Origin: Chitinophagaceae bacterium
Lineage (GTDB): Bacteria > Bacteroidota > Bacteroidia > Chitinophagales > Chitinophagaceae
Assembly: GCA_016787065.1 (NCBI GenBank)
Contig: JAEUVD010000003.1
Span: forward strand, 34,582 to 98,581
Reading direction: 5' to 3'
Length of the DNA stretch: 64,000 bases
This document shows, in pieces, positions 2,625 through 47,801 of the stretch (the stretch's first letter is position 1; each line of letters opens with the position of its first letter). Below the pieces are notes generated by a model that did no database searches, was not told the origin of the DNA, and saw only the letters and a list, made by a program, of their open reading frames with translations. Both the position numbers and the translations under genes were made by a program.

Positions 2625-2975
2625 AGTTTTATTTTTTTGGTTTGTGTTGAATGGTTTAAAAATTTCATAGGTTGATTCGATTGTTTGATTCATAGGATAA
2701 CTTCAATTTTTACGATACAAAATTGGAGGAATGCTTGTGTTGGAACAATCGTTAGTCCTAATGAATTCTTAGAAGAAAATGAATTTTTTTCTCATGGTTT
2801 TCTATGATTTCTATAAAGAGATCATAGTATTTATCCCTTTTACTTAAGTAAGATTTTTAAAAATTGAAACAGAGTGAATACCATTTCACTAACGCAATTG
2901 AAAAAATTACAAGGAAGAAGAGGTTCATTTTTTAGGGCAAATGAAGTAGGTTTGTTTCCATACCACTTGAACCTT

Positions 2976-11458: not shown

Positions 11459-11509
11459 AGCGAAGACAACTAATTTAAGAGAACAATAGTACAAATTATA
11501 TGGTTTGTA

Positions 11510-22400: not shown

Positions 22401-22453
22401 TGAAAGTAACGAACGGTGGTATCCCTTATACTATCAAGGTTACGAAGCAATAA
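13481..22453 (+). CDS. Giant (2990 aa) cell-surface adhesin-like protein with Ig-like tandem repeats, SdrD-B/Cna-B-like domains and a T9SS C-terminal sorting domain
   Basis: Signal peptide MFYPYVRKLFVLLLFLGSSYVLRAQ. Ten 80-aa repeats. Nine or ten G(N/D)(Y/R)VW.D.N.NG.QD...E.G..GV.V.LY domains with DxDxD-type Ca-binding loops. The tail YPNPVEDVLHIQI...YYLKVTNGGIPYTIKVTKQ is a type-A T9SS CTD. Confidence 0.92.
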   Translation: MFYPYVRKLFVLLLFLGSSYVLRAQTISGTVYRDFNGNGTRQTSGVTIEPGTGGVLVNAYDASNSLVASAVSNPDGSYSMPYTVPVRLEFVIPSVGSGNYCSGAPLDFTGFGGDGNNIRFITASTSGIDYAIHYPFDYVSNTNPPFYFPQYSNGNPLGGGTTGTATGFKGHLYNHTGTTAAAQTLALSQIGTTWGVAYSKQAKVLFSAAFVKRHAGLGPLGSGGIYKLTPTATSFTTSQFYDLDANGHNSRAGAGAPAFGPGSSYNLSGVNLATYLGGTDPLSNAPIGLGVIGSNTDRNLPANFATDNNDPAAMGQVGRVGLGDIDISDDGKYLFVVNLYQRVIHRLELDDAYNPTSVISVTTFSIPAQPVTNGVLRPFGLGFHRGDIYLGAVASGENGGVNNVGGVTDLYGFVFRLKDATTGSAAFESTPLINLPLNYAKGPSVLNDANAKKWYPWNNSTSALLNVSGESTLPTPILSDIDFTDNGDMILDFMDRSGHQFGYQNYLNLSGTTALFTYDIGGDILIAGKDCGGNGFTIENNGSFTSADGTSYTSGAANGQGPGNSEFFVGEFYPTWHSETSMGSCAVLKGTRQVLTTLMDPINDFSSGTGKLSTVNGTRSGELQAIRTANDFGKANGLGDIEVAGDVAPLEIGNRVWNDANANGVQDPTEVGIANVSIELFCDADNNQIPDGAAIATTNTDGNGYFYFNISNVTDGNCTEPGNQAGPQPGLNYLVSIGSSDWTGGSGTGDLNALFLAPSNSASNGIVDASDNDATLVSGVPTISVLTSSKWGDNNHTFDFGFTPAPPCTVTASVVAGTQSICSGGDPVAFTETTAATGSGTLTYQWQSSTTDCASGFNNIPTATGTTYDPPAGLTVTTYYHVVVTNTDGADVCTDISNCITVTVNPNPSADAGPDKSLDCATTSTTIGTAAVGGNSYSWSPASGLNATNIAEPTANPSTTTTYTVTVTTGFGCTATDDVMVSVNTTPPSADAGQDKSLDCSTTSTTIGTAAIGGNTYSWSPSTGLNATNVAEPTANPSSTTTYTVTVTGSNGCTASDMVTVTVNTTPPTADAGQDKSLDCSTTSTTIGTAAIGGNTYSWSPSTGLSATNVAQPTANPSSTTTYTVTVTGSNGCTASDMVTVTVTTAPPTADAGQDKSLDCATTSTTIGTAAIGGNTYSWSPSTGLNATNVAQPTANPSSTTTYTVIVTGSNGCTASDMVTVTVNTTPPTADAGQDKSLDCSTTSTTIGTAAIGGNTYSWSPSTGLNATNVAQPTANPSSTTTYTVIVTGSNGCTASDMVTVTVNTTPPTADAGQDKSLDCSTTSTTIGTAAISGNTYSWSPSSGLNATNVAEPTANPSSTTTYTVTVTGSNGCTASDMVTVTVNTTPPTVDAGSDKTLDCTTTSTTIGTAAISGNTYSWSPSTGLNATNVAEPTANPSSTTTYTVTVTGSNGCTASDMVTVTVDVTPPTADAGQDETLTCSVTSVFIGSPAISGNTYSWSPSTGLTNANVAQPTAYPTATTTFTVTVTGSNGCTASDMVTVTVDVTPPTVDAGPDKSLDCTTTSTTIGTAAISGNTYSWNPASGLSATNVAEPTANPSTTTTYTVTVTGSNGCTESDVVTVTVNTTTPTADAGQDKTIDCATSSVMIGTAAIAGNTYNWDPGTGLNDATLAQPTASPSTTTTYTVTATASNGCTATDVMTVTVNGNLGSVGNYVWIDLNANGMNDEPTTAGVNGVTVELWKETSSGSGTYALLNTTVTANNAGDPGYYSFSICDAANYKIKFPLNVGAEKLTSQTATPATDANSDANVTDGFSPVFMIDPNGSGTTKDNPTIDAGYYTTACLGNYVWNDLDKNGIQDANEVGVAGITVTLYNSSDVVISTTVTDAYGKYHFCELMPGDYKVGFTLPQDYNFSVTDSGTDDNVDNDASGTTGLTGFYTLKSGDDNLTVDAGIFFEAETTASVGNYVWYDTNQDGIQDPSEVGISGVTVVLYDNTGNPVAATITDGNGFYLFTDVPPGNYTVGFTPPTGLGFSPNNGGVGSPSNSDANPLTGITTSFTVNPGDQITYVDAGLYQLPNNIGSLGDRVWYDVNEDGNQDADEVGVEGVTVTLYSGDGTTVLNTTTTNVYGNYIFNNLVEADYVVGFSNLPVDYVLTVNTGTDSTTNSDADPLSGKTNVIHLGSGQHNMTYDAGIYTTDVANTNSIGNYVWNDINKDGIQDATENGVPGITVSLYNNTNLILKTTSTDENGFYLFPDLPNGIYYVGFSNLPVSYQLTSPNQGADDALDSDADQTTLLTATTTLTGNTNDMTLDAGIFANNDRIGKGSLGDKVWYDLNNDGLQDANEGGVPGVLATLYEQDGTTVLKTTTTDALGNYIFTGLDAGSYVVGFTNLPSGFTITTQNSDNQGVNGELNSDVITATQKTPVVALGQGENKLSVDMGIVPPVGSAGLGNYVWIDLNTNGLQDVNEPGVTGVTVTLYNSSNNPVAVTTTNSDGQYQFVGLTPGTYAVGFSNLPDGYELTTQNADATGINGAANSDADVLTGITASVTLAAGDFNPNLDAGIFSTLVASLGDYVWLDMNGNGVQDPSEPGVGGILVTLYDNTGTPLTSMITNPKGGYLFSNLNPGTYYVGFTNIPSGMIFSAQETNPSDATGSNANPLTGTTPTVVLAAGSHNPTIDAGLMLPNTAGLGDYVWHDVDKNGQQNAGEPAIAGVLVTLYDGTGTTTLATAITDGSGAYSFTNLSAGDYQVGFAAPTLFTPDGARVPIPTQLNNGTDASDNDADPISGRTTSYTLAVGEFNPTIDAGFIYQFATPITLSSFNVNSNECSAFLSWTTSMEKNADYFAILRKDETTGYTEIGRVKAAGNSNLTKQYSFNDKALANGTYWYQLKLVDIDGNFSNSSEEQIQVNCGGAGSISVYPNPVEDVLHIQIIAESAESTELSLMNTIGQVVIKQQGELEIGVNELNIPMQRLAAGTYYLKVTNGGIPYTIKVTKQ
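16208..18607 (+). repeat. Ten in-frame tandem copies of a 240-bp (80-aa) unit
   Basis: ADAG(Q/P)DK codons recur at 16208, 16448, 16688 and so on to 18368, an exact 240-nt period. The central copies differ by only a few substitutions. Unit: ADAGQDKSLDCSTTSTTIGTAAIGGNTYSWSPSTGLNATNVA.PTANPSSTTTYTVTVTGSNGCTASDMVTVTVNTTPPT. Confidence 0.95.
18608..21890 (+). repeat. Nine tandem SdrD-B/Cna-B-like domain repeats (~105-120 aa each, divergent)
   Basis: The seed G(N/D)YVW.D.N.(N/D)G.QD recurs nine times in the translation. One additional copy lies near 15430. Confidence 0.8.
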
Positions 22454-25584: not shown

Positions 25585-27399
25585 TTACGCATGTTTGATT
25601 ACTACTTTATGAAACTCTTTGAAATATTCCTTATCCGTTAAAACCAAGGTGTACACACCTTCGGGTAAATCATATACCGGTATTAGCGTAGTATCATTCT
25701 GATTCATGCCATACCGAACTACCGCCCCTTCGATATTAAGTAAAGTAAGTGATAGTGCAGAAGAACTTCCACGAATGGTAATGCTTAACTGCGTATCCGC
25801 AGGATTTGGGTAAATTAGCACATCACGAGTATCGCAGAACATACGTAACGACAGAATTGCTGAATCTACATATGTTGAATCTTTTTGAACGATACGAATT
25901 TTATAATAGCAAAGGTCATGCGAAGGATTATGTTTGAACGTGTACATACCACCATTACTCCGGGCTTCCACAGCTCCAATTTTTTCAAACGCCAGGGCAT
26001 CAACTGAATACAAAATATCATAGCGTTCAACGAGTTCATCCGATGCGGTTTCCCAAGAAATAAGCGCTTCACAATGTTCTGCTTTAACAGAGGCATTAAA
26101 TAAAGAAATAGGTAAGGTTGTATTCGGAGAAAATATTGGTAACCAATTGTAATTATTTCCATTCATAATGGCTTGCGTATTCGCAGCACTTACACCAAAC
26201 CAGTCGGTAAGTATGGTTGAATAGATTTGCCTAAAATCATGTTGTAACGGTAAATCATCGTTCACGGTAGCATTTGCAGGCAGTACAGGATTTGCGCCAA
26301 TGATGGCAGGATTAACAGCCGAGCCAAAAACAAAAACAGGTTCTGAGGTACCATGATCGGTTCCGGCACTACCATTCGATTTAATACGCCTTCCAAATTC
26401 AGAGAAGGTCATTCCAACTACTTTATTATCTAAACTCTGGTTTTCAAGATCTTGCTGAAACGCGCCTATGGCCGATGAAAGTTTACCTAACAACGAGGCA
26501 TGTTCGCCTTGCGTATGATCTGCTGAATCAACCTGATCATTATGGGTATCAAAGCCATTGATGGTAACAATGTATACAGGTGTTTGCAATCCACCGGAAA
26601 TTAGTTTGGCCACTATTTTTAATTGATCTGCCAAATCATTATTGGAAGGATAGGTTACTGAATTTGTTCCGCCTTGCGTTGCTAATTGTATGCGTGATGT
26701 GTACGATTCTGTTTGTTGCGCTATTAAACGCACATAGGTTAGTTCATTTCCTCCTTTCGTATTTGGAGCAGGGTCAACAAAGTTGTTTTGAATATTGTAG
26801 AAATAATCAATATTAGAAACAGTCATTCCGTTTAACCCGTTATTGCCATAGATGAGTGAAGATGCCTGATAACCGATTTCAATACTTAACGGATCTAAAA
26901 AAGTTGGATTCGGATAAGCTAAAGGGGCTCCCGTAAATTGATTTTCTATAAATCGTCCTATCCAACCTGAATTAATATATAAGCTGGAATCGGATGCACT
27001 GGAGAAAATATCGGTAGCCCGAAAATGAGAATAATTCGGATCTGGGTAACTTACTCCTTGTATAATATTCAGCTTACCATTATTGTACAGATTTTGCATG
27101 GCGGTCATCGCGGGATGCAACCCGGTATCACTGGTACCATTTAATGATAATACCGAGCTCGAAGGCAATAAGATATTTGATCGTGCTGCACTTAAAGCAC
27201 TGTATTGATCGAGTGGCACTAAGGTATTTAATCCATCATTCCCTCCACTTAATCGGATGAGCACAAGAATTTTACCGTTACTGTTTCTTGTCTTTTTATT
27301 GATAGCTTGTTCTTGACCGAAAGCATGCACGGGTAATCCATTTACCGAGCAGGCCATCGTAGCCATAGATGCCATTTTTATAAAGTCTCTTCGTTTCAT
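25585..27399 (-). CDS. DUF1501 (sulfatase-fold) protein with a twin-arginine signal and a T9SS C-terminal sorting domain
   Basis: N-terminus MKRRDFIKMASMATMA is a Tat motif. The core includes GGNDGLNTLVP, FDTH and GTDHG. The tail is VLIYPNPADTQLSITI...VYTLVLTD...KVVIKHA. Confidence 0.8.
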   Translation of the reverse strand: MKRRDFIKMASMATMACSVNGLPVHAFGQEQAINKKTRNSNGKILVLIRLSGGNDGLNTLVPLDQYSALSAARSNILLPSSSVLSLNGTSDTGLHPAMTAMQNLYNNGKLNIIQGVSYPDPNYSHFRATDIFSSASDSSLYINSGWIGRFIENQFTGAPLAYPNPTFLDPLSIEIGYQASSLIYGNNGLNGMTVSNIDYFYNIQNNFVDPAPNTKGGNELTYVRLIAQQTESYTSRIQLATQGGTNSVTYPSNNDLADQLKIVAKLISGGLQTPVYIVTINGFDTHNDQVDSADHTQGEHASLLGKLSSAIGAFQQDLENQSLDNKVVGMTFSEFGRRIKSNGSAGTDHGTSEPVFVFGSAVNPAIIGANPVLPANATVNDDLPLQHDFRQIYSTILTDWFGVSAANTQAIMNGNNYNWLPIFSPNTTLPISLFNASVKAEHCEALISWETASDELVERYDILYSVDALAFEKIGAVEARSNGGMYTFKHNPSHDLCYYKIRIVQKDSTYVDSAILSLRMFCDTRDVLIYPNPADTQLSITIRGSSSALSLTLLNIEGAVVRYGMNQNDTTLIPVYDLPEGVYTLVLTDKEYFKEFHKVVIKHA

Positions 27400-27414
27400 G
27401 TTGTTCTTTTTGAA

Positions 27415-29151
27415 TTAGGCAATTTGATGTTCAGCAGTTCTGCAAATAAGGGTTAACAAGGCGCGTAAACGAGAGAGCACGATACCTTCTTTCGTTGGGT
27501 CACTTGGATCGTTTATATAATTTATCCATGCTTGCGTCCAATAGTAATTTGAAGTTTGCCCGGATAACAATACCGATTTCAACGTTGTTTTTGATGTAGT
27601 AGAAAGGGTGAAACTTAAAAGTCTGGATAGAAAAAAATCTAAGAGGATATCCGGATCTCCCGGACTGCTGCAATCTTGCGCAAACGCAATTACATTGGAG
27701 CGTACCGTAATAGTTGGCGTAGCCCACTGCCCCCATGCATTAGCCAAATTATCGATATAACTCATTCGTTTGGTTATCGAATCGGAGTTTATCCATAGCT
27801 GATGAAATTGGGGTGTTTGGTAATAGGCCGTCCAACCTGAAACACTCGGTGGGTCGCCAATACTCATGGCAAGTCCATCCATTAAATAACCCATCGTAGA
27901 TAAACTCCAATGGTAATCTTCATAACTTGTAGTAGCAGGAAACTCAACATGGGCGGTATTCATAAAACCGAGGTAAAAGTCCATCGGATTACGAATGACA
28001 CTATCCATCGATAAGGGGTCGAAGAAATGATAGCTTTTAAACAGTTGCTCCAGTACCGGTTTGATTTCCCAATTCGAAGAAATAAAGGTTTGAGCAAGCG
28101 GTGTAATAATATTCGTTTCAATATCCGAATCAATATCGTAGTGCATGAAAAAGCGATAGATTTTTCTACATATAAATTTTGCTACGATGTTGGTTTTTGC
28201 AAAAATCATTGTAAGCAGGGCATCTAATTCTGTTTCACCTGCTGCACCACTTTGACCAACAATGGTTGTACTATTATAAAACGAGGAAAACACTTTATTG
28301 GAAGTATCGTGCCAACTCGAGTCGTAAAAATAGTTATAGGATGTGTTGGTATCTAAACGAAATCCGGTTAGCACTTTGGCGGCGAGTTTTATATCGTTTT
28401 CAGTGTACATATTAGGCCCCTTACCGAGTGTAAAAAGCTCTTGAAGTTCACGTGCATAATTTTCATCCGGCGACCATTGGTTATTCCATGCCCCATTGAG
28501 GTAAATGAGCATCATGCCGTTTTTGGTTATGTCCTTTACAAAGGTTTTAAAATTACCCAAGGCATGTTGTCTTAACAGTAGAACATATTCATGAAAAAGT
28601 CGGGCATCACCTACCATAGCATATTGTGTAGCAAAATGATTATGCCAAAAGGCAATCATTTTTTCTTCAATACTCATGGGTTGATTCAAAATATTATGAA
28701 ACCATGCCGTTCGCACCGAAAGATAGCGGTAGTAGTTAACCGTACCATCGTTGTTATAAGGCGCTCCAACCCAAGTTTGTCCGTACGCAATGCTCTGATT
28801 ATCTGCTTGTAGATTTTGATAATAGTTGATAGGAAGCAGCGGAGAAGGGTTACTCGTGTTAAGCAACACATCGATGGCTTGTGATGGCGTTAAACTTGCC
28901 AGCGCATTATAATGTGTATTTTTTACACCTACCGTAAGACGGCGTAATACATGTACTTTTTGTTTTTCTCCCCAAGGACCTGCATACGGCGATAACGTAC
29001 TTCGTGATTTTTTTACCTGTAAGGGTAGTGATTTATTTCCGTATTTCTTTACCAATTCATCCTGACTGGCGTCGTAGGTTTTAATGATGACGGGCGTGTT
29101 CTTGGAAGGAATAAATTTATCAAAGAATTCCGCCCTGTTTAAATGTGGCAT
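27415..29151 (-). CDS. DUF1800 family protein (usual partner of DUF1501)
   Basis: Its size, all-helical character and position 15 nt upstream of a DUF1501 gene fit the family. Motifs include WHNHFAT and ARELQELFTLG. No N-terminal signal peptide is visible. Confidence 0.7.
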   Translation of the reverse strand: MPHLNRAEFFDKFIPSKNTPVIIKTYDASQDELVKKYGNKSLPLQVKKSRSTLSPYAGPWGEKQKVHVLRRLTVGVKNTHYNALASLTPSQAIDVLLNTSNPSPLLPINYYQNLQADNQSIAYGQTWVGAPYNNDGTVNYYRYLSVRTAWFHNILNQPMSIEEKMIAFWHNHFATQYAMVGDARLFHEYVLLLRQHALGNFKTFVKDITKNGMMLIYLNGAWNNQWSPDENYARELQELFTLGKGPNMYTENDIKLAAKVLTGFRLDTNTSYNYFYDSSWHDTSNKVFSSFYNSTTIVGQSGAAGETELDALLTMIFAKTNIVAKFICRKIYRFFMHYDIDSDIETNIITPLAQTFISSNWEIKPVLEQLFKSYHFFDPLSMDSVIRNPMDFYLGFMNTAHVEFPATTSYEDYHWSLSTMGYLMDGLAMSIGDPPSVSGWTAYYQTPQFHQLWINSDSITKRMSYIDNLANAWGQWATPTITVRSNVIAFAQDCSSPGDPDILLDFFLSRLLSFTLSTTSKTTLKSVLLSGQTSNYYWTQAWINYINDPSDPTKEGIVLSRLRALLTLICRTAEHQIA

Positions 29152-29312: not shown

Positions 29313-30773
29313 CTACATAACCACATTAATATACCCCAACGGAGTTACATTGATCCATGGTGCTAAGTCGCGATAAGAATAAACACATAACCAAGGATGT
29401 ATTTTTTGAAGATAAGCTGCTAAGGAAGGGCGAATAAAATCCTGACAAACAACACCATGTAATTTTGTGTTGCGAGGGATTTCCGTAAGTTGTGTTTCAA
29501 TCGAATCTAAAACACCATTAAACAACTTTCTTTCTCCATCCATATCAAGTTGAAGCCAGGTTTCTTCTACCGTTACACCCATGATAAGTGCATTGAAATT
29601 ATTATCCTTGGAAATCGATACAGCGGTTTCTTCTTGCAAACCACGACGTAACGATTCCACAATCAAATCTTTGCCTTGAAGTTTTTTGTTTTCACTATAA
29701 ATAACAGTAAGTGCGGAAGTAGAACCAAAGGCTATCGTTCCGGCATCTCCGTACATCGCATCTTGCTCATACGTAAGCAAGTGAAGTAACTTTTTTAAAT
29801 TGCGAATGGGGATTCGTTCCTCCGACAAACGCTTCAGAAAATACACGATATCCTCCATTGTATATTGTTCTAAAGCCAAGGCTAATACATCGGCATGAAG
29901 TGGTTGTTCATCTAATTGAAATGCGATAAAGGTTTTGTTTATCCAACAGGAAGCATGTAATTGAACTACGGCGGAAGTCATTAAATTAAGCATACCCATC
30001 CATGCAAAACAAGTATCCGTTTCCGGTTGTAATTCGTTGCTGTTTTTTAAAACATGTATCGTAGCAAAATGAGGATGGTTTACGTCGTGCGGATTACCAA
30101 TAACTTCACCGGAAGTAACAGCCGGCATTTCCATAAAATAATTTTCCGGAAAACTATGTAGAACAGGATAAGGTAAATCGTTAATCCAAATTCTAAAACC
30201 AGTTTCAGGTAAAGTATCATCAATATGGAAGGTAGGTTTGGGAACCAGAACACCTTTATCATAATACAATTGTGAATGCCAAGCCGCTACATATTCTTCT
30301 CTTGAAAAGGAATCTATGTTATGTGGCGAAGTATAAACTTTTGAGGTAACATCAATACGCAAACGATGCATCTCCACCGTTGGCTGCACATTTTTTTGGG
30401 AAAAACATGGTTGAATTTGTATGCGCTCTGCTTCGAGCTTATCCGGATTAAAGGAACCTACTAATACCATTTCTCGATGATAAAAAAGAGCTTCTGAAAA
30501 ACGCAGCGTCCAGTAAGTACTATTTTCTTCATAGGAGTAACACGGACGATACACCTTTGCCACACGAAATTCCTGATTGTTTATTTGAATGGCATGATAA
30601 GATGAATACTGCATCGTGCAGCTTACCGCTACTTTTTCTGTATAGAAATTTTCCGCTAATAAAGAAAGATAAGCTTTTACATCGTCAACAATCTTTTGTT
30701 TTTCTTCTTCAGAAAAGGAATGAAACAACGATTGTTCTACACAAAGAGTAATTAAAAAATTTCGTGTTGTCAT
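29313..30773 (-). CDS. Soluble FlhA/FHIPEP cytoplasmic-domain-like protein (system component C)
   Basis: The ATG at 30773 overlaps the upstream stop as ATGA. By-eye matches to FlhA_C signatures are GVLVPKPTFHIDDTLPETGFRIWIND, IVYFLKRLSEERIPIRNLKKLLHLLT and the C-terminal FIRPSLAAYLQKIHPWLCVYSYRDLAPWINVTPLGYI. No TM segments. Confidence 0.6.
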   Translation of the reverse strand: MTTRNFLITLCVEQSLFHSFSEEEKQKIVDDVKAYLSLLAENFYTEKVAVSCTMQYSSYHAIQINNQEFRVAKVYRPCYSYEENSTYWTLRFSEALFYHREMVLVGSFNPDKLEAERIQIQPCFSQKNVQPTVEMHRLRIDVTSKVYTSPHNIDSFSREEYVAAWHSQLYYDKGVLVPKPTFHIDDTLPETGFRIWINDLPYPVLHSFPENYFMEMPAVTSGEVIGNPHDVNHPHFATIHVLKNSNELQPETDTCFAWMGMLNLMTSAVVQLHASCWINKTFIAFQLDEQPLHADVLALALEQYTMEDIVYFLKRLSEERIPIRNLKKLLHLLTYEQDAMYGDAGTIAFGSTSALTVIYSENKKLQGKDLIVESLRRGLQEETAVSISKDNNFNALIMGVTVEETWLQLDMDGERKLFNGVLDSIETQLTEIPRNTKLHGVVCQDFIRPSLAAYLQKIHPWLCVYSYRDLAPWINVTPLGYINVVM

Positions 30774-33427
30774 GACCACTGAAGCATTTGAGCGTTATTC
30801 AATTCATTTTCTGGTGTTTGAAACATCATGGATGTGCCAAACAAAACATTTGGAAACTCGATGGCGCAAATGAGTTGTAGCACAAAAGCAGTTTGCTCAT
30901 GTTGAACTATAACGCGTGCATTTTTATCAAGTGTATTTCTAAAATAGGTAAGCATGGTCTGACAAGAAGTAGCGTCCATATCAGCGGCCCACTGATGAAG
31001 TAAGGTTTGTTTAAAAACAGATGTCAATTGCGATTCGTTTTCTGCACTAAGCGTATACCATGTAAAAAGTATATCGTTATACGGGTTTTGCAAGGGAAAC
31101 TCTCGTAAACTCATTATATGATACGCTATTTCCTGAATAGCTTGATTGGCTTCCACCCCCCTAAGAAACAACGTGTACATTGAAGGGAGGTTTTGCATGG
31201 AAACTTTATATTGCAATAAGAGTTGAACACATTGCATAAAGGCCGTTTTCTGATGACGATCCGCTTGTTCTGTAACCGTTTTAAAGTTCGCTTGATCATA
31301 ATGCATAAACCGATGCAATTGATTCCAAAGCGTATATTGTAAATGCTCAAAGATTACATCTACCGGTTCAAGAATAACACAAGAGGAAGGTATTTGGGTT
31401 CGATATTCTTCCTTAACCCAGTGTAAGATAAAATATGGAGCGTAAGCATAACACGTTTCAATAACAGGTACTTCGTTGAGAGCCCCACGAACTAAAATAC
31501 AATCTGCATGAAATTTAATGCCATGATTGGTGTACACTTCTTGTAACGTGGAGTAGAAGTCATAGTGCTCGGAATGAAAGGTGTATTCTCTGAAAATTAT
31601 AGCCGGTAACGCCACACCAAATCGTTGATGAAAAGCTTCTTTAAACTGATTCAGTTTTTGCCAGAAGGCCGGCGTAAAATCATTGCGTTCGGGCGTTAGA
31701 AATAAATCACACAAACGTGAATCACATTCAACTGCAATTTCTGTAATGGTATGATTGTAAGGCGTTCCTCCATCGAAAACAGTGCGCAACACTTTTATGC
31801 GTTCCACCTGTTTGCGAAAGGTAGTATTGTTTGGAAAATCAAGTAAAGCATCTTCATAAACTGCTATCAGAAAATCCTCATCCTGTTTTTTATCGGCAAT
31901 AGATTTGGTAAAGAAAGTATAGAAGTCTTGTTTACGTTGTTCGGGTATTACCGCACAAAGCTGATGATAAAAATGTTTACTCGCCTCAAAGTTGATATTA
32001 CTTGTTGCATCATGTTGGGCTAAACGTTCAGAATAAAATTCGGCGTATTCAAATAATGCTTGTGAATCGGGAAAGGCTTTTATTCCTTCTAACAAATTTT
32101 CAGAAGCCTGTTGCCACTGTTGCAAACTTTCGTAGCAAGTGGTAATCTCCATGATGCACAATTCCTGAAACACTTCCGAAAATGGATAGGCTTGCTTCAA
32201 AACGGCAATAGCCGCTTCATAACACGATGCTTGCTTATATAAAATATACAAAGCCCAATACGGATCGAAACAAGTTGGTGCCGCTAGCATTGCTTCTTTA
32301 TATACCTTCTCCGTTTCGAGATAAGCCGCATCCGCAGTTAAGTTTGATAGATCAGCCGGTAAAGGATGCCGGATAATACTACCTGCTTGAAGGAGTACAT
32401 CAACACGCAACTTGTTTTCTTGTGCTGCCTTCGCATGCCATTGTTTCGCAGCTTCTATATCATTCACGGTTATGCAGGCATTGGCAGCATCTAAATAATA
32501 GTGAATGGCATAGTTGATTTCAATAAGAAGCTCCGTATCCACATAAGCGGAAATCTGGTCTTTTCGCACTTCATAGAGTTTGCTTTCTGCACCATACAAA
32601 CTGATTAAGTTCTGGTATGTTTCCAGATAACCGGGTTCACTTGCTTTGGCTTTGAAATACCATTCTTCTGCTGTGAAAAAATCTTCCTGTTTACGAGCAC
32701 AATTGCCCAAGCCGTTATAACCAATAACCAACATTTTTTGATCAAGCACCATCTGTTGATAGCGGCTCTTTGCATCCTCTATTAAATTTTGTTCCAGATA
32801 CCAAGTAGCATGTACACTTTGCACATAGGGTTCCGTTTCATGAAGTAGAATAGCTTCATCGAGGAATGTTTTACTTCGTTTATAATCACCTACATAAAAT
32901 ATATAGATTGCGGCTAAAACACTGAGAAAATGTGCTTTTCTAGGCGCGGTAATGTGAGGCGATGTTATCCAATGTTGTATCACCGGAATCATTTCTACCC
33001 AACGTCGCTCTTCAATAATGGTAACCCTATTCGTCCAAAACAATTCTTCTTCCGCGCTAATCTGTTGATTAGATTGAAGCACCTGTAGTACATCTTTAAA
33101 ATGTACAGTTCGCCACACATAGAGGTATTCAAAAAATACTTCTTCAAGCGTGTTCGTTGCTTCCGCTATTAATTGCGCATAACCTTTTGCAACGTGTAAA
33201 GCAAATTGCGTTCGTGTTTGTATTAAGGTATCTAACGCACGTGTAGGCTTACTTTGTATCACCGCATTATCCCAGTGTGTCCAATGCGACAATACATTCG
33301 ATTCATTTTGAACAGTTCGTTTTAAAGATTCAATGATGGAAGCAAATTCAACCATATCGGTGCCTGCAAGCGATGCATTGTAATACATCGCGGCCAATAA
33401 TTCTTGATATGAAATTGAAGGTGCCAT
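30770..33427 (-). CDS. TPR-repeat protein with a C-terminal FlhA/FHIPEP cytoplasmic-domain-like module (system component B)
   Basis: The N-terminal ~550 aa are helical, TPR-like repeats. The last 325 aa (30773..31747) read ITEIAVECDSRLCDLF...FKEAFHQRFGVALPAIIFREYTFHSEHYDFYS..., PVDVIFEHLQYTLW, FMQCVQLLLQYKVSMQNLPSMYTLFL and ARVIVQHEQTAFVLQLICAIEFPNVLF. No TM segments. Confidence 0.6.
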   Translation of the reverse strand: MAPSISYQELLAAMYYNASLAGTDMVEFASIIESLKRTVQNESNVLSHWTHWDNAVIQSKPTRALDTLIQTRTQFALHVAKGYAQLIAEATNTLEEVFFEYLYVWRTVHFKDVLQVLQSNQQISAEEELFWTNRVTIIEERRWVEMIPVIQHWITSPHITAPRKAHFLSVLAAIYIFYVGDYKRSKTFLDEAILLHETEPYVQSVHATWYLEQNLIEDAKSRYQQMVLDQKMLVIGYNGLGNCARKQEDFFTAEEWYFKAKASEPGYLETYQNLISLYGAESKLYEVRKDQISAYVDTELLIEINYAIHYYLDAANACITVNDIEAAKQWHAKAAQENKLRVDVLLQAGSIIRHPLPADLSNLTADAAYLETEKVYKEAMLAAPTCFDPYWALYILYKQASCYEAAIAVLKQAYPFSEVFQELCIMEITTCYESLQQWQQASENLLEGIKAFPDSQALFEYAEFYSERLAQHDATSNINFEASKHFYHQLCAVIPEQRKQDFYTFFTKSIADKKQDEDFLIAVYEDALLDFPNNTTFRKQVERIKVLRTVFDGGTPYNHTITEIAVECDSRLCDLFLTPERNDFTPAFWQKLNQFKEAFHQRFGVALPAIIFREYTFHSEHYDFYSTLQEVYTNHGIKFHADCILVRGALNEVPVIETCYAYAPYFILHWVKEEYRTQIPSSCVILEPVDVIFEHLQYTLWNQLHRFMHYDQANFKTVTEQADRHQKTAFMQCVQLLLQYKVSMQNLPSMYTLFLRGVEANQAIQEIAYHIMSLREFPLQNPYNDILFTWYTLSAENESQLTSVFKQTLLHQWAADMDATSCQTMLTYFRNTLDKNARVIVQHEQTAFVLQLICAIEFPNVLFGTSMMFQTPENELNNAQMLQWS

Positions 33428-33433
33428 GAAGGT

Positions 33434-35578
33434 TTATCGTGTGTTTTTAAATAACAAAGTTTCACTTCCTGTACGCTTGCTTCCATCAAACATGCCTTCT
33501 TGTTGTAATTCTTCTCTTCGGAAAACAGGGGTGGTGCAAGCACTACAAAAGTTATCTTCAGGAGATGGTATCAGGTAACCACAATGATGACAACGTTTCA
33601 AGATATTTCCGCAACGTCGACAACTTTTCATATCCGGCTCGAGGAGCAAGTAATTCACCTTCGTTGCCTCTTCAACTTTAACAAATTCAATTTCATTGTT
33701 ACAAACTTCTCCCTTCCTACTTGCAAAGTCGTTTTTGTTTTTGCATTTCACAGCGAACACCATTTGTTCTTTGATAGCCGGTGCTTCCTTTTCAAAAACA
33801 AACCGAAAGGATTTTCCTAAATAAGAAGAAACTTTTACACGGGGTTGTTTGCTTTTAAAAAAAGATATTTCGCCAAGCGAACGTTTAACAGCGGTATCCA
33901 TATCCGTTTCATCTTGAATGAGGGCTTTATAGAAATACCGTGAAAAATTGATTGCGTTTGTATTTCCCGCAGGTGCTTGTAATGCTAATACACCGGGTAC
34001 TTCTTTCAATAACTGAAAGGCAAAACCACTGAGAGCAAGGTAGGTTTCCTCCGGACTATCTACCGCAGCATGTAAAAAAATCAAAGCGGGTTTCTGTAAA
34101 AAACAATCGATAAATGATTGTCCGTTTTTCCAATTTAAATTATTGCTTTGGATACTGAAGGTATCGCCTAAGGCAAGTTCAAAAGTGGGCGTAGCTTCTT
34201 TATTGCTTCGCGCCATACCAAAAACATGAACCACTTGAAACGGTGTATTTTGTTTTACGATGAAATCAGCAAGCTGATTGAGCGATGAAAAATATTCGAG
34301 TTGACCGGAAACTTTTTTACCGGAGTAACCTTGTATATCCTGAATAGCTTCTAATAAAATTTGTTCATCTGCTTTGAGTTCGTCGTTTTTACGCAAATGA
34401 TCGGAAACAGCAATAAGAACACGCAATTCTTGTGTATTAATAAGCTGATCATTTCCTTTAACCGAGAGCCTGCGGGTAAGTATCAATTCATTACTTTCAC
34501 CTACGAAGAGTCCTTTATTATCGGCAAAAGGACAATACAAATATTCCCACGGCAAGCAAGCCAGCAACGAAGATTCTTCGTCGAAGCGTAAAATAATTTT
34601 TAAACGAATTTTATTTTTTACCGCTTGTTGTACATAAGTTGTAAAGGCAACTTGTGCTTCGCTTGAGCAAAGCAAACGCTGAAAAAGAGAGGTACCTAAA
34701 ATTTCAAATTCATCTTCACGCAAATTGTCTTCCACCAATAACCGTTGAAGTATACCTGTAACTTGTTCTGAAAAACGTTCGCCTGAAACGGTGTATTTAA
34801 CGCGAAAATCTACATCGTTTGGTGAACGGAAATAAACATACTTCCCTTGCTTAACCGAAATCACCACCGCGTCACTATCTACCCGAGAAATTTCAAAGAG
34901 TTCATTTTCATTAAATGCTTGTTGTAGAAGAACCTCCTTATTGGCAACTGCATGTTGCTGCAAACCTAGCTTGAGTTCTTCTTCTTGAATACGTTTTAGG
35001 ATGGTTGATTTAATGACTGCAAAGTTATTAGCACTCAGTAATTCTTTGGTGAGTGTATTGATGTCGGAAAATAACTCCAACATATCATCTAACTCATTCT
35101 TAATTTCTCGATAACGTTTAAGCCATTCGATTCGTTTTGGACCAATGCTATCTGGATTATTTTTTACAGAAGCTTCAGCCTCGTCTATTCGTTTATTCCA
35201 GTGGTCGATGTAAACTTGTTTTCCTTCCGGTGTTTTTAAACTTAGATTATCTTCTACCCGAAGTGGTATAATTCGTTTGGTAAAATCTTCTTCTTGACCT
35301 TTTGAGTTTCTAAAAATTTCCAATAGTTCATACATACAATACTCCGATTTCAAATATTTATCGGAAATACCTACAATAACTAAGTGACCTTCCCCGATGC
35401 GGTTCATGAATTTGGTAATCTGTCCGGTATATCCCAAATCATATTTGTCGCGAACAACATGATAACCGTCATTAAGCAAGGAATTATAAATTTCATGAAT
35501 CATCTTTTCCCGACTTTCGCCGGTTTCCTTTTCATCGCCATGGGCATAAGAAAAAAATATTTCAACAGATGAAGGCAT
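33434..35578 (-). CDS. TIR domain + coiled coil + CHAT-like domain + double zinc-ribbon protein (system component A)
   Basis: The ATG at 35578 (MPSSVEIFFSYAHGD...) is preferred over the TTG at 35599, which would overlap the -7 box. TIR: FFSYAHGD...LVIVGISDKYLKSEYCMYELLEI. CHAT-like: LRVLIAVSD...VVHVFGMA...ALIFLHAAVDS...GVLALQAP...YFYKALIQDETDMDTAVKRS. Zinc ribbons: CRRCGNILKRCHHCGYLIPSPEDNFCSAC. Confidence 0.75.
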   Translation of the reverse strand: MPSSVEIFFSYAHGDEKETGESREKMIHEIYNSLLNDGYHVVRDKYDLGYTGQITKFMNRIGEGHLVIVGISDKYLKSEYCMYELLEIFRNSKGQEEDFTKRIIPLRVEDNLSLKTPEGKQVYIDHWNKRIDEAEASVKNNPDSIGPKRIEWLKRYREIKNELDDMLELFSDINTLTKELLSANNFAVIKSTILKRIQEEELKLGLQQHAVANKEVLLQQAFNENELFEISRVDSDAVVISVKQGKYVYFRSPNDVDFRVKYTVSGERFSEQVTGILQRLLVEDNLREDEFEILGTSLFQRLLCSSEAQVAFTTYVQQAVKNKIRLKIILRFDEESSLLACLPWEYLYCPFADNKGLFVGESNELILTRRLSVKGNDQLINTQELRVLIAVSDHLRKNDELKADEQILLEAIQDIQGYSGKKVSGQLEYFSSLNQLADFIVKQNTPFQVVHVFGMARSNKEATPTFELALGDTFSIQSNNLNWKNGQSFIDCFLQKPALIFLHAAVDSPEETYLALSGFAFQLLKEVPGVLALQAPAGNTNAINFSRYFYKALIQDETDMDTAVKRSLGEISFFKSKQPRVKVSSYLGKSFRFVFEKEAPAIKEQMVFAVKCKNKNDFASRKGEVCNNEIEFVKVEEATKVNYLLLEPDMKSCRRCGNILKRCHHCGYLIPSPEDNFCSACTTPVFRREELQQEGMFDGSKRTGSETLLFKNTR
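33524..33622 (-). other. Double zinc-ribbon-coding segment (CxxC-x6-CxxC-x12-CxxC)
   Basis: tgtcgacgttgcgg (CRRCG) was read at 33609-33622 on the minus strand. There are six Cys in three CxxC pairs. Confidence 0.7.
35150..35578 (-). other. TIR domain-coding segment
   Basis: FFSYAHGD is a betaA-type motif. The SxxYLxSxxCxxEL motif is present with its Glu conserved (SEYCMYELLE). Confidence 0.75.
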
Positions 35579-35596
35579 GCAACGAATTGATAAGGC

Positions 35597-35604
35597 CAAA
35601 TATA
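35597..35604 (-). promoter_or_regulatory. TAnnTTTG box (TATATTTG) upstream of the TIR operon
   Basis: Plus strand reads caaatata, 19-26 nt upstream of the ATG at 35578. Confidence 0.4.
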
Positions 35605-38726: not shown

Positions 38727-40334
38727 ATGAAAAATAGAATTACAATCCTTGCGATGTGCTTTTTAAGTTATCAGGGTTATACACAAGACATCGTAATGAA
38801 ACAATCCAACGAATTTGATTCACCCGCTAGACATGATATTCTAGCTCCTATTCAACTTGGAGAACAGGGAATATTTCAATTTAATGTCAAATCAGGACGA
38901 GGCAAATCGGAATCGGTTCATGTAGTTCATTTCAATAATAAATTGGAAAAACTACAGGAGAAGACCATTACCTTGGACGATGAATGGATGATGATTTCTG
39001 AAATTCCGCATGTGGTTCGAGTTAAGAATAAAATTTATTTTCTTACGAGAGAAGACAGCAAAAAAACGGAAGGCATGAGTGCGATAGAATTTGACCCACA
39101 AACCTTAACATTTTCCAAAAATAAAATCCCTTTGTTTCAATCGTCAGACAAAGTGTATAATTGGAGTTTTTTTCGTTTCGGTCAAGAAGAAGCGGATGAG
39201 TGCTTAGTTTCCGAAAATAATACTCGTATTGGCTTAATCTATCGCTTGAAACCTGAAAGCAGACGCGAAAAGGTAAATTATGATATCATTGGTATGAATG
39301 TATTTGATGAGAATATGCAAAAAGTATGGACCAGGGAATACAAAATGCCTTACACGGAAGCAGTGATGGATAATGAGAGTTATGCTGTTACGAACGACGG
39401 TAAAATTTATTTATTAGCTAAGGTAAACCTCGATAAGGAGGATCGGGTAAAGGGTGAAGCGAAATATAATTACGAATTATTAGTGTACGATGGACAGCAT
39501 GAACAACCCGATGTAATAAAAATAGATTTAGATAAAATCATTCCGAGTTCATTTAATTTGTTTGAAACGAAAACGGGTGAGATGATGTTGTCTGGCTTTT
39601 ATTCACGCTTGAATCAGACGGGTATCGATGGTGCTTATGTTTTACAAATCGATGAGCAAGGTAAAACGTTGAAATTTAAGAATGGAGGTATGTTTGAAAT
39701 TCCTACCGAAATAATTAAAGCCAATGCCACGGCAAGAGAGTTAAGAAAAATGAAACGTGCAGAACGCAAAGATGATGAAAATGATTTAGGCGTAAAAAAT
39801 CTCGTAATACGTTACTTCACCCAGTTAGATAATGGTGATATGATTTTGATGGGAGAAGAATATGAAGTGCAAATGAGAACCTACACGACAGGCGTTGGTG
39901 CCAATGCCACTACACGCACAGAGTATAAAACATTTGCCAATGATATTTATGTTATTCGAGCAAACAAAGATGGTACCTCTTGGGTACGTAAAATTCCAAA
40001 ATATCAACGAAGTAACGATGCCTATGGTAGACAATTATCGTTTAATGCTATTGTATCGGGTAATGATGTTTACGTTTTGTACACGGATAATAAAAAGAAC
40101 AAAAGCTTGAGCGAAAAGGAAGTGCCGGAAGTTCATATTCAAGGATACGGAGGTTATCTTGCCTGTGTGAAACTCGATCAGCATGGAACTATAAGCAAAA
40201 AGTATCTCACTGAAATTGAAGATTTTGAAACGAACTTTTATATACGTCGTTTTGTGCAAGGCGATCATGGTAATATCATTTACACCGCCAGAAAACTAAG
40301 AAGAAATTCAATAATTTCTCTTGAGGTGCAGTAG
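38727..40334 (+). CDS. Hypothetical secreted protein
   Basis: 535-aa ORF with signal peptide MKNRITILAMCFLSYQGYTQ. I recognised no family. Confidence 0.6.
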   Translation: MKNRITILAMCFLSYQGYTQDIVMKQSNEFDSPARHDILAPIQLGEQGIFQFNVKSGRGKSESVHVVHFNNKLEKLQEKTITLDDEWMMISEIPHVVRVKNKIYFLTREDSKKTEGMSAIEFDPQTLTFSKNKIPLFQSSDKVYNWSFFRFGQEEADECLVSENNTRIGLIYRLKPESRREKVNYDIIGMNVFDENMQKVWTREYKMPYTEAVMDNESYAVTNDGKIYLLAKVNLDKEDRVKGEAKYNYELLVYDGQHEQPDVIKIDLDKIIPSSFNLFETKTGEMMLSGFYSRLNQTGIDGAYVLQIDEQGKTLKFKNGGMFEIPTEIIKANATARELRKMKRAERKDDENDLGVKNLVIRYFTQLDNGDMILMGEEYEVQMRTYTTGVGANATTRTEYKTFANDIYVIRANKDGTSWVRKIPKYQRSNDAYGRQLSFNAIVSGNDVYVLYTDNKKNKSLSEKEVPEVHIQGYGGYLACVKLDQHGTISKKYLTEIEDFETNFYIRRFVQGDHGNIIYTARKLRRNSIISLEVQ

Positions 40335-40563: not shown

Positions 40564-43500
40564 TTATGGAGTAGCTGCGCTTACACCATTTACGATGTTA
40601 GGATCTATCGCGAGATAGTCGAAAACATCGACAGAACCATCACCATTTACATCGGTATTTAAGTAACCGCTTGAACCATTTACTACGTCTGGATCAAGTA
40701 CTAAGTAATCAAATACATCGATCGTCATGTCGTTATTCAAATCACCACTGAATAAACCGAATACACCGGCACCTAAAGGCGACATATTACTTCCGTAGGC
40801 CTTGGTAATTGCATTCGAGAAATTGTAATTGTACGATGCGGCAGCAACAACCGGAGCACTGCTCCATGTTTCTAAAGCGTTACGATGCTTTAAAACAATG
40901 TAGTAGGAATTTCCAACGATCGAAGGAGGGAAGTTACACACGGCGTTACCATTCGTTTGCAGAACGGCTTTCACTGAATGAACAAGCGCATAAGGAGCAA
41001 TACCACTATGTAGCTCAACAGTTACCGTATCAGTATGCGTTAACGGATTTGGCTCTCCTTGATTATTTAAAACCGGTTGCATAAGTGATGCGCCTAAGTA
41101 ATAACCTTCAATAAATGCTTTCACGGTTAATACTGCAGAGGCACAAGGAACGTAAGTTATAGTTCGCGTGGCAGTTGCAGTACAGCCTGCACCATTGGTA
41201 CCTGTTACAGTATAGGTTGTTGTTGATGTTGGCGATACCGTAATACTACTACCAGAGGCACCTCCCGGTTGCCAAGTATAGGATGTGGCACCTGAAGCGG
41301 TTATCGTTGTAGAACCTGAACAGTTTATCGTTGTAAGGGTAGCACTCGTTGAAACCGTAGGTAAATTATTTACGGTAATTAAACGGGTTGCGGTTGCTGT
41401 ACAACCAGATGCATTCGTTCCTGTTACAGTATAGGTTGTAGTTGTGGCAGGTGTTACATTAATAGAAGCGCCACTTAAATTACCTGGCTGCCATGTATAA
41501 GTGGAAGCGCCGGTTCCATTAATAGTTGTTGATTGCCCTACACACAGTGTGGCTGCAGAAGTAGTTGTTCCAACACTTGGTAAGGTATTAACTGTTACCA
41601 AACGAGTTACCGAAGCAACACATCCATTGGCAGCAGTACCTGTTACCGTATACGTGGTAGTTGATGCTGGTGAAACAATTACAGGAGTTCCGGATAAGGC
41701 TCCCGGCTGCCAGCTATACGTACTTGCACCACTTGCAGAAATGGTTGTTGATTGTCCTACACAAATTGTTGCGTTGGTAATCGATGTAGTAATCGTTGGT
41801 AAGGTATTCACGGTAATAAGTCGGGTTGCCGTTGCGGTACAACCAGAAGCAGATGTTCCGGTAACTGTATAGGTAGTAGTAGAGGTAGGTGAAACAACAA
41901 CCGAGGTTCCAGATAAATTACCTGGTTGCCAAGTGTAAGTTGAAGCACCTGTTCCAGTTAAGGTTGTTGAACCTCCATTACAAATAGTGGTTAAGGTGGC
42001 TGTAGTGGAAACCGATGGTAATGGGTTAACGGTTATTGAAGCTGTTGACGTTGCCGTACAACCGCTGGCGTTCGTAACAGTTACCGTATAAACACCGGTT
42101 GTATTCACATTAATCGCTGCTGATGTAGCACCTCCTGGAGCCCAAACGTAGGTACCACCACCGGAAGCGGTTAATGTTACCGTAGTTCCGCTACATACCG
42201 TTGCGGCTGGGGAGATAGCGATAGTAGGATTAGGAACAGGATTCATGAGAATAACAAAAGAGGCTGTATTCGTACAACCAAGTGAACTGGTTGCTGTAGC
42301 CGTATAGGTTGTTTGAACCAATGGATTCACAACTACCGGAGATCCAATTAAGTTACCCGGCTGCCAATTCCAAATTACACCTGCACCGCTTCCTGTGAAA
42401 GTAACAGCTCCACCCGGACAAACAATACCTGGTGTGGCATTGCCGGTCATGGCAGGTTTAGGATTAACCGTGATGGTTCGAATAGCCGTAGCAATACAAC
42501 CGTTAGCGTTCGTTCCTGTTACTGTGTACGTTGTTGTTGTTGTTGGCGAAACAGTAATCGATGATCCTGTTGCTCCTCCCGGTTGCCAACTATAGGTCGT
42601 TGCACCTGAGGCAGTAATCGTAGTTGATTGTCCTTCACAAATAGTAGTGGCTGTTGCCGAAGTTGAAACTGAAGGTAAGCTATTGATAGTTACATTATTC
42701 GTTGCAACTCGTGTTGCATTAGTACAACCCGTTGCTGTATTAGTTACTTGTGCATAGTAAGTGTAATTACCTGCAACAGGAACATAGGAATAAGGATTTG
42801 CTGCACTTAAAGAAGCACCTCCCGTTGGTGTTGTGTACCAGGCCACACTCTGTGTTGTTGTAGATTGATAAGGTGCACGGAAGTTCGTAATGTTTAAGCT
42901 ACCAGCCCCACCAAAATTATCACTAGTGTACATTTGAATTTGTACCAGATCACCGGCATTAACAGGTAAGCTAAAGCTACCCGATTGAGCTACATCGTTT
43001 CCGAAGGCATTTTTGAAGCCCGGCAAAACTTGAGCAGCACCGCCATTTACAGAATAACGAGGATAATCATAAATAGGGGATCCGTCGGTAGTAGTGTAAC
43101 TCCAACTAAATTTCAGGTAACCAGAACAAATCATACTATGCTGATAGGCTGTTACCCCAGTGGAAGACAAACCATCACTCGAAGTAATTACTATCGAATT
43201 AGGAGCACCTGCTATATTAACTGTACCATTAGAATTAGTAAGTAAGGTTGACCAAGTAGCCGGCAAATAACTTCCGGCAAATCCTGATTGAACTACACCA
43301 TTACATTGATTTCCCGCAAGAGCTGCATAACTTAACGTTACAGCAGATCCAACACATGCTGAGCTTGGAGAAGCGGAAGCAATACCTGTTGGTGAATCCA
43401 TCACTTGAATACCAATGCTTGCTGTACCGGTACAACCATTCGCATCGGTCACCGTTACACTATAACTTGTATTTGCTGTTGGTGAAACTGTTGGGTTTGC

Positions 43501-47475: not shown

Positions 47476-47801
47476 AGGCTTGTTTCGCCTTTGTTGATGT
47501 TGGTAATGTAGTTGCATGGTGTACAATTTAGGTTTGGGCGAAGTTCCCTTTTAATTAGAGGCTTCTGGGCATTCGTTTAGAAAGTGGTATGTTTTTCGTG
47601 GTATTCATACAACCTCATGAAGGATTTGGTAATTCCGTACTTGCTCAATGGATGTAATAGGCGTAATAGTTCTAAAACACCTTTACTGAATTAACAAGTT
47701 CCAAGACTACATTCTTATTGAAACCTTTGCTACCTAATGTTTTGTTATTACATTTTTTGGAATATACCTCAGCGTAATTTTACACCCTAAATTTTTTTCC
47801 T

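Follow-up and report, generated by a model that had tools for sequence, protein, structure and literature searches.

Two soluble FlhA/SctV cytoplasmic-domain paralogues in a candidate conflict operon of a Chitinophagaceae bacterium

In a 64-kb stretch of DNA from a Chitinophagaceae bacterium (contig JAEUVD010000003.1; "the window" below means this whole stretch), three minus-strand genes, A, B and C, encode a caspase-fold protein with an N-terminal TIR domain and two soluble paralogues of the cytoplasmic domain of FlhA and SctV, the type III export-gate proteins of Pfam family FHIPEP (we write FHIPEP_C for this domain). We consider it somewhat probable that the operon is a member of an undescribed family of conflict systems, of the immune or abortive-infection type, in which TIR domains clustered by a B/C platform would deplete NAD+. 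What would be new is the core, a domain that the databases and the open literature have never reported as the base of a conflict system with exchangeable effectors. An initial annotation, made by eye, had suggested an oligomerisation-driven immune or abortive-infection module, and all of its domain assignments held under profile, profile-profile and structure tests. As for function, we infer defence from domain content, module swapping and evolutionary rate, which agree with that suggestion; the window itself is not a defence island.

A, B and C are real genes and not chance open reading frames (ORFs), because orthologues with 40-63% identity stand in the same gene order in other assemblies and dN/dS lies between 0.07 and 0.37. 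Related loci are cited below by L number and individual proteins by P number; feature coordinates are collected in Table 1.

Soluble FHIPEP_C proteins

Protein C had been read as a stand-alone FlhA_C-like protein, and profile and fold comparisons agree. It matches Pfam FHIPEP (PF00771) at 2.3e-11 (43.3 bits against a cutoff of 29.1) and covers positions 321-654 of the 657-position profile, which correspond to the cytoplasmic domain (SD1-SD4) only. A profile of 30 C-family sequences recovers CdsV/LcrD at 1.3e-65 and FlhA at 1.9e-38 from the PDB, with InvA, EscV and MxiA also matching. The AF2 model computed with this 30-sequence alignment (pLDDT 87.1, pTM 0.88) gives the same picture, its best 50 PDB matches by Foldseek all being SctV_C/FlhA_C structures (E ~1e-16, TM 0.70-0.80 target-normalised). 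No TM-like or hydrophobic segment was found in C. The additional N-terminal domain lies outside every SctV/FlhA structure match and is the fastest-diverging part of the protein, at 30% identity to the L004 orthologue.

Protein B comprises a conserved N-terminal region, a TPR array and an FHIPEP_C-like domain, in that order. The TPR-like array noticed by eye is weak by Pfam in the window protein; it matches designed and natural TPR structures at 8e-7 and is strong in orthologues and fusion proteins. The C-terminal ~325 aa, which had been likened to FlhA/InvA, have no direct Pfam match, and BLASTP of B against C finds no similarity, the relationship between the two proteins being visible only through fusion proteins, orthologues and profiles. 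Four lines of sequence evidence nevertheless identify this module as FHIPEP_C. Firstly, a profile of the module built from the window clade alone aligns with the C-family profile in hhalign at 91.8% probability (E 7.5e-7) over 267 co-linear columns. Secondly, the B module profile finds CdsV (6wa6) in the PDB at 9.3e-13. Thirdly, at 39.9 bits the B orthologue of L009 clears the Pfam FHIPEP cutoff of 29.1. Fourthly, the module aligns with the first of the two FHIPEP copies (Pfam 8e-86) in the 1,412-aa fusion protein P0093. Orthologues of B are 49% identical in L003-5 and L008 and 24% identical in L009 (E 6e-70), and more distant relatives occur in L006, L007, L012, L014 and L015.

Single-sequence PDB searches with A, B and C were weak or uninformative, and a word-indexed homologue search with C returned C alone. 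An exhaustive HMMER search of 1.84 billion cluster representatives (clusters at 50% identity) was needed, and it yielded 108 relatives of C at E<=1e-3. Most are 480-660 aa long, and several of 1,400-2,100 aa have the order TPR, FHIPEP_C, FHIPEP_C, which is B fused to C (P0093, P0099, P0116, P0147). The C family is rare and patchily distributed, even among relatives, and the gene cluster is no part of a universal core genome. A motif of the clade was matched in 2 of 185,579 species genomes, and in 5 metagenome contigs in a companion scan, counts from narrow pattern scans with few loci that say little on true abundance. A scan of 72,556 plasmids recovered true SctV genes only (29.5% identity over the cytoplasmic domain) and no family member, and none was found in viral contigs or a viral structure library.

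Taken at face value, public annotations imply that B and C are remnants or accessories of a type III secretion system (T3SS) or flagellar export apparatus. The homology to SctV_C/FlhA_C is indeed unambiguous by sequence and fold: C holds the complete cytoplasmic fold and the C-terminus of B a more divergent form, and LcrD_C shares 29.5% identity with a canonical member of the family. The other hallmarks of FlhA/SctV, a membrane domain and a setting of secretion genes, are absent. The polytopic N-terminal membrane domain, or transmembrane (TM) export engine, occurs in 0 of the 108 family representatives, and no membrane domain was found in A, B or C. The NCBIfam equivalog models TIGR01398 and TIGR01399 give C 40 and 23 bits, far under their cutoffs of 692 and 772. 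The ORFs scanned across the window, like the related loci, yielded no further T3SS or flagellar gene, and the hosts are Bacteroidota-type. The domain is here always present as two paralogous copies, separate or fused, after TPRs or the novel N-domain, and it is accompanied by TIR, CHAT, caspase and TPR proteins. Purifying selection, moreover, means that B and C are not decaying pseudogenes. On the TM domain, the partner genes and the selection we reject the secretion-system remnant, a reading that is effectively refuted.

In NCBI and IMG, soluble FHIPEP_C proteins (P0077, P0076, P0101, P0106, P0183) go under the names "FHIPEP family type III secretion protein", "type III secretory pathway component EscV", "type III secretion protein V" and "flagellar biosynthesis protein FlhA". 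Such type III and flagellar names are likely to represent systematic mislabelling, and genes so named can prompt false inference of a secretion system or of motility in metagenome-assembled genomes (MAGs).

The cytoplasmic ring of FlhA/SctV is viewed as a component dedicated to the export gate, and a sizeable soluble family in non-flagellated, T3SS-free bacteria would be unexpected. These soluble proteins offer simple models for ring cooperativity and ligand recognition, as well as data on the origin of the domain.

Protein A

Protein A reads, from its N-terminus, TIR, helical tail, inactivated divergent CHAT and double zinc ribbon, and its orthologues, 62.5% identical in L003-5 and also in L008, occupy the same place before B and C. 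The N-terminal TIR of the initial annotation is borne out by a match of TIR_2 (PF13676) to aa 7-133 (E 1.3e-12; 48.7 bits against a Pfam cutoff of 28) and by a profile, built from A and eight homologous TIR modules, that matches plant TIR NADase structures at 1e-9 to 4e-7 (L6 at 1.7e-9, ROQ1 at 2.4e-9, RPV1 and RUN1 included). Glu84, in the motif YCMYEL, is invariant in 9 homologues and aligns with the Glu of WCLMEL in L6 and of WCLEEL in ROQ1. From what is known of plant TIRs we take it to be the candidate catalytic residue, and with this catalytic-type Glu kept the domain is a candidate NADase. Together with its tail (~200 aa in all) the TIR recurs at 40-53% identity in NB-ARC/TPR STAND proteins and in LRR-Roc-COR proteins, which points to a plug-in module of immune-type proteins. 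When PADLOC was run on the locus, its models matched only the N-terminus of A, with a weak bSEFIR (4e-6) and a marginal DruC (5e-3) hit.

The CHAT-like module claimed for A survives in altered form, as a probable scaffold: relatives match Pfam CHAT clearly, and the catalytic dyad in A is gone. The window protein has no direct match to Pfam CHAT (PF12770) at E<=1, and a profile of its core found nothing in the PDB. The region from aa 221 to aa 681 is, however, clearly homologous to four other proteins. One, from a Chitinophagaceae MAG, is 878 aa long and homologous to this core in its C-terminal 520 aa, with a Peptidase_C14 caspase as its N-terminus (E 3e-45); another is a 591-aa core-only protein in a Ferruginibacter MAG. 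The CHAT proteins at L012:1820-3214 and L015:1498-3243 match Pfam CHAT at 4e-18 and 1.1e-17 and the A-core HMM at 6.7e-49 and 2e-22, respectively. An AF2 model of the core, made from 4 sequences and of low confidence (pLDDT 51), has the SAVED-CHAT filament 8tl0 as its five best Foldseek matches (E 2e-4, prob 1.0), with caspase-9 further down the list.

The canonical dyad motifs, HFIG-HG and LIFL(H/Q)AC, are present in L012 and L015. At these sites the window protein has HVFG-MA and LIFLHAAV, its clade showing the variants HVFG-MA/LA and FLHA(A/S)/FLHTV, and in the dyad alignment the catalytic His is absent from the whole window clade and the Cys from all members except L009. With the His/Cys dyad lost, the CHAT domain of A would be a pseudoprotease; an active CHAT protease in A is rejected, both catalytic residues being missing. 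CHAT is at the same time the best-conserved part of A (identity with the L004 orthologue is 75% here and 55% in the TIR), which argues for a retained non-catalytic, structural role. As judged from sequence, this would be a clear example of a CHAT protease demoted to a scaffold while a plug-in TIR takes the effector role.

The Cys-rich C-terminus had been described as a double zinc ribbon. Its Pfam matches in the window protein are both below cutoff (DZR 5.8e-4, 20 bits; Zn_Ribbon_1 8e-4); the L012 homologue matches Zn_Ribbon_1 at 3.7e-8, above cutoff, and the Cys columns are conserved in the alignment, in keeping with that description.

Gene contexts and swapped modules

The initial annotation had raised the question of whether A, B and C travel together elsewhere. 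They do so in at least 11 distinct loci of the approximately 18 sampled, from different lineages, in the order caspase-fold protein, TPR-FHIPEP_C, FHIPEP_C (the window, L003-5, L008, L006, L007, L009, L012, L015, L016, L019, L022). On this constant core the module at the A end is swapped. A TIR is fused to the dead CHAT core in the window, L003-5, L007 and L008, while in L009 the fusion partner of the dead core is a caspase (Peptidase_C14), accompanied by a patatin that matches the phospholipase effector models of PADLOC at 3.6e-67. Separate patatin and caspase genes occur in L006, a caspase alone with a fused B-C protein in L016, and an intact-dyad CHAT preceded by a conserved protein, X, in L012, L015 and L022. 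Loss of the CHAT dyad falls in the clade that bears the TIR or caspase/patatin modules.

The patatins bear on what the TIR of A does. TIRs of Thoeris and of plant TNLs make signalling nucleotides, and A could be a generator of this kind, producing a cADPR isomer or related nucleotide for a true effector encoded elsewhere, in place of depleting NAD+. The closest solved relatives of the TIR by profile are plant TIRs, and a patatin of the CBASS type, which in CBASS answers nucleotide signals, accompanies the system in L006 and L009. Those patatin-bearing loci, however, have neither a TIR nor a cyclase, and no nucleotide-sensor domain (SLOG, Macro, SAVED, CARF) was found in the window operon by Pfam or PADLOC; the trio likewise contains no SIR2/Macro ThsA, cyclase, NTPase or Cas gene. 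In relatives, directly destructive enzymes fill the position of the TIR. We regard a signal-generating TIR as quite improbable and retain NAD+ depletion as its preferred role.

Gene X encodes approximately 355 aa (L012:698-1762, L015:348-1454, L022:3562-4629; 37-38% identity, E 8e-74) and immediately precedes each intact-dyad CHAT gene of the canonical systems. It has no match in Pfam, NCBIfam, PADLOC or the PDB and no detectable gasdermin similarity, and it weakly matches (1e-5) the N-terminus of a 651-aa FHIPEP protein in L018. X may be a protease-activated effector or substrate. Its place in these relatives of ancestral type, directly upstream of an intact caspase-fold protease, resembles that of a protease-activated pro-toxin in bacterial operons of gasdermins and caspase-like proteases, from which the present systems differ in the lack of gasdermin similarity in X and of X itself in the window.

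Several canonical systems also include a small stand-alone TPR protein (~160-180 aa; L014:5459-5938, L022:10629-11114, L013:657-1196), whose gene closely follows that of FHIPEP_C or precedes the B-like gene. This protein, which the window lacks, may be a fifth component.

Members of other FHIPEP_C subfamilies occur as fusions with, or next to, STAND-like NTPases, NACHT, TIR_2 and EAD1/EAD11 adaptor proteins. One such subfamily, at L018:216-11911, has three FHIPEP_C proteins and an 873-aa protein; the FHIPEP_C protein of 1,481 aa has a STAND-like NTPase region (weak nSTAND1 match of 1.8e-4, below cutoff), and the cluster adjoins an EAD1+EAD11 "effector-associated domain" protein and an AAA_11/AAA_12 helicase. 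At L021:1-10488 a TIR_2 protein is followed by a 1,284-aa STAND-like NTPase, several short FHIPEP fragments and a 495-aa FHIPEP_C protein. The fragments resemble genes broken by frameshifts, possibly through assembly artefact or decay.

Divergence and genomic setting

The window and L003-5 are syntenic on both sides of the operon (kpsF-GNAT-MatE; Carb_kinase/VIT1). Between them kpsF and MatE are 81.5% and 82.4% identical, compared with 62.5% for A, 48.6% for B and 39.5% for C. The same order of divergence, A < B < C, is seen at close range, where L004 and L008 share 95.4% identity in A, 89.4% in B and 82.4% in C (first 125 aa), and dN/dS between two close relatives is 0.07 for A, 0.11 for B and 0.37 for C (first 122 codons). 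The fastest-diverging parts are the N-domain of C and SD3-4 of B, at about 30% identity. As dN/dS is below 1 and divergence exceeds that of the neighbours, the trio is functional and fast-evolving under purifying selection.

A number of points weigh against a conflict system. Firstly, the window is ordinary chromosome (dnaN, trigger factor, kpsF, MatE, T9SS adhesins) in which no defence or mobile-element genes lie near the operon; without such neighbours, and with the locus syntenic in a sister species, the usual signature of a defence island is absent. Secondly, positive selection was not found at the scale of genes or of 100 codons, dN/dS being <1 throughout. Thirdly, the CHAT assignment in the window protein is based on transitive homology and on the model of pLDDT 51. 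Lastly, about 18 independent loci are a small sample of gene context, and the pattern-based scans that supplied part of it can miss most relatives.

Suggestive neighbours occur only in some relatives: NACHT and an antitoxin in L020, a SNF2/DEAD helicase upstream of the system in L016, and the AAA_11/12 helicase of L018. Directly downstream of the caspase and TPR-2xFHIPEP system of L016, a Lactamase_B protein (L016:14297-15145) shows a weak match to the Anti-Pycsar protein Apyc1.

The same assembly logic could serve a regulated switch for cell death, dormancy or development that answers an endogenous stress or population signal and is not directed at phage. A chromosomal, syntenic locus outside any island would suit such a switch, whose closest analogy is HetF, a cyanobacterial CHAT protein of cell division and differentiation that the CHAT of L022 weakly resembles (4e-4). 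Multicellular or social bacteria are enriched for the ternary, NTP-dependent conflict systems of Kaur, Burroughs, Iyer & Aravind (2020, PMC7159879), and Chitinophagaceae-like bacteria are among the hosts here. Swapping between TIR, caspase and CBASS-type patatin, rarity and fast divergence are, in contrast, typical of antagonistic coevolution more than of a conserved developmental pathway, and the distribution is patchy even between relatives. We consider the switch unlikely on balance and continue to favour a conflict system.

Databases and literature are consistent with the remark in the initial annotation that no described defence or signalling system recruits FHIPEP cytoplasmic domains. 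No model in PADLOC 2.0 (2023) matches B, C, the FHIPEP proteins of relatives or gene X, and neither PADLOC nor NCBIfam has models for the core of the system. The open-access literature on FHIPEP concerns flagella or injectisomes, or mentions the family in passing, and describes no soluble homologue. No description linking FHIPEP or FlhA with conflict or defence systems was found in the open literature, a 2026 domain-centric defence screen included, and PMC7159879 mentions neither FlhA nor FHIPEP.

Proposed mechanism and related systems

FlhA_C and SctV_C form nonameric rings, switch cooperatively and bind chaperone-substrate complexes. By analogy with these nonameric, cooperative and chaperone-binding rings, we propose that B and C would form a hetero-oligomer, probably a ring, by way of their FHIPEP_C domains. 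A protein derived from an invader or from stress would be sensed by the TPR array of B together with the fast-evolving surfaces (SD3-4 of B, the N-domain of C), and the dead CHAT and zinc ribbon would be the adaptor that docks A onto the B/C assembly; the same CHAT domain would be an active protease in systems of the ancestral type. Ligand-triggered remodelling or higher-order assembly could then gather several TIRs of A into active NADases, and depletion of NAD+ by these would stop the growth of the infected cell or kill it. Since the trio has no NTPase, cooperative FHIPEP_C assembly would set the threshold, as STAND and MoxR NTPases do in related systems. More generally, and more tentatively, soluble FHIPEP_C pairs could make up a ring or hub that works cooperatively and without an NTPase, detecting invader proteins and licensing effectors of the caspase-fold, TIR or phospholipase kind; this we find plausible, though short of probable.

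In its logic the trio resembles three groups of known systems, the TIR-STAND, TPR-CHAT and ternary conflict systems, and is a member of none. With the TIR-STAND proteins (TIR-NB-ARC-TPR/Avs-like and TIR-ROCO proteins; the plant TNLs ROQ1 and L6) it shares, besides the TIR and tail described above, the combination of a repeat sensor, an oligomerisation module and a TIR that needs clustering; it differs in having CHAT and FHIPEP_C proteins in place of NB-ARC or NACHT. The protease effectors TPR-CHAT (Csx29 of Craspase) and SAVED-CHAT (8tl0) of type III CRISPR and CBASS-like immunity also bring a CHAT caspase fold and TPRs together in an immune-type operon, and the L012 homologue matches the SAVED_CHAT model of PADLOC at 1e-13. 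The window trio, by contrast, is without Cas7-11, Cas10, SAVED or cyclase, carries TPR and CHAT on separate proteins, and has lost the dyad, so that the catalytic role would pass to the fused TIR. Like the ternary systems of PMC7159879, it belongs to multi-gene systems with a constant core, interchangeable effectors (TIR, caspase, patatin), inactive enzyme domains and repeats that form superstructures, and one FHIPEP_C subfamily is fused to a STAND-like NTPase and adjoins an EAD1/EAD11 adaptor. The window trio itself has no vWA-MoxR, GTPase, STAND or EAD components.

Should the reading as a ring or hub prove true, it would give the type III export-gate domain its first non-secretory function and prokaryotic immunity a new class of oligomerisation platform. 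The operon would be a candidate for a system that relies on something other than a STAND/AAA+ NTPase or a nucleotide second messenger for its threshold or oligomerisation. The origin of the FlhA/SctV substrate-sorting ring would also be touched on: a membrane engine may have captured a free-standing ring that bound ligands, or the opposite may have happened.

Operon features and neighbouring genes

The three-gene layout of the initial annotation was confirmed, with a gap of 6 nt between A and B, an ATGA overlap between B and C, and the gene lengths as described (Table 1). The base composition of the operon is unremarkable. A TAnnTTTG box placed 19-26 nt upstream of A was recovered as TATATTTG (35604-35597 in reading direction), 19 nt upstream of the ATG and within the 109-bp divergent intergenic region common to A and kpsF; it is a putative promoter by the known Bacteroidota consensus and, with the two giant surface proteins described below, indicates a Bacteroidota host. 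An alternative start of A, the TTG at 35599, falls inside this box, and orthologues begin MPSSVEI, as does the ATG form.

Table 1. Positions of the operon genes, their domains and the putative promoter box in the window
Feature	Position	Strand	Basis or remark
Gene A	33434-35578	minus	714 aa, ORF from ATG at 35578
A aa 1-135, TIR domain	35174-35578	minus	Pfam TIR_2 and plant TIR profile matches
A aa 136-215, helical extension ending ...INTLTKELLSANNF	34934-35173	minus	Shared with other proteins alongside TIR
A aa 221-575, divergent CHAT (caspase-fold) domain	33854-34918	minus	Homology via relatives, fold matches
A aa 611-685, Cys-rich double zinc ribbon, CxxC x3 and two further Cys	33524-33748	minus	
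Gene B	30770-33427	minus	ORF of 885 aa
B aa ~171-480, TPR array	31988-32917	minus	Weak Pfam TPR; structure matches
B aa ~561-885, highly divergent FHIPEP cytoplasmic domain (FlhA_C/SctV_C-like)	30773-31747	minus	
Gene C	29313-30773	minus	ORF of 486 aa
C aa 1-135, extra N-terminal alpha/beta domain	30369-30773	minus	AF2 model pLDDT about 80-98 here
C aa 136-486, FHIPEP_C domain	29316-30368	minus	SctV_C/FlhA_C structures matched over full length
TATATTTG box, Bacteroidota-type TAnnTTTG -7 element (putative)	35597-35604	minus	Read from sequence

The flanking genes are unrelated to the operon, as had been described. One flank is a kpsF-like SIS/CBS gene, the other a DUF1800/DUF1501-type pair. This pair (25585-29151) stands between the operon and Carb_kinase + VIT1. 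In L005, the sister genome, the pair is missing and gene C is followed at once by Carb_kinase, so that the pair was either inserted in one lineage or deleted from the other.

Elsewhere in the window, four sizeable ORFs are without a Pfam match at 1e-5: 38727-40334 (plus strand, 535 aa), 96-2693 (minus, 865 aa), 10526-11494 (minus, 322 aa) and 61040-62242 (minus, 400 aa). Near the C-terminus of a 1,528-aa protein encoded at 49771-54357 on the minus strand lies a Peptidase_S74 (endosialidase intramolecular chaperone) domain, of a kind that phage tail fibres and spikes commonly carry; the surroundings showed no further phage genes. Two giant surface proteins are also encoded, one of 2,990 aa at 13481-22453 on the plus strand, with ten SdrD_B repeats and a T9SS Por_Secre_tail sorting domain, and one of 2,320 aa at 40564-47526 on the minus strand, with a thermolysin M4 protease and Ig_7 domains.

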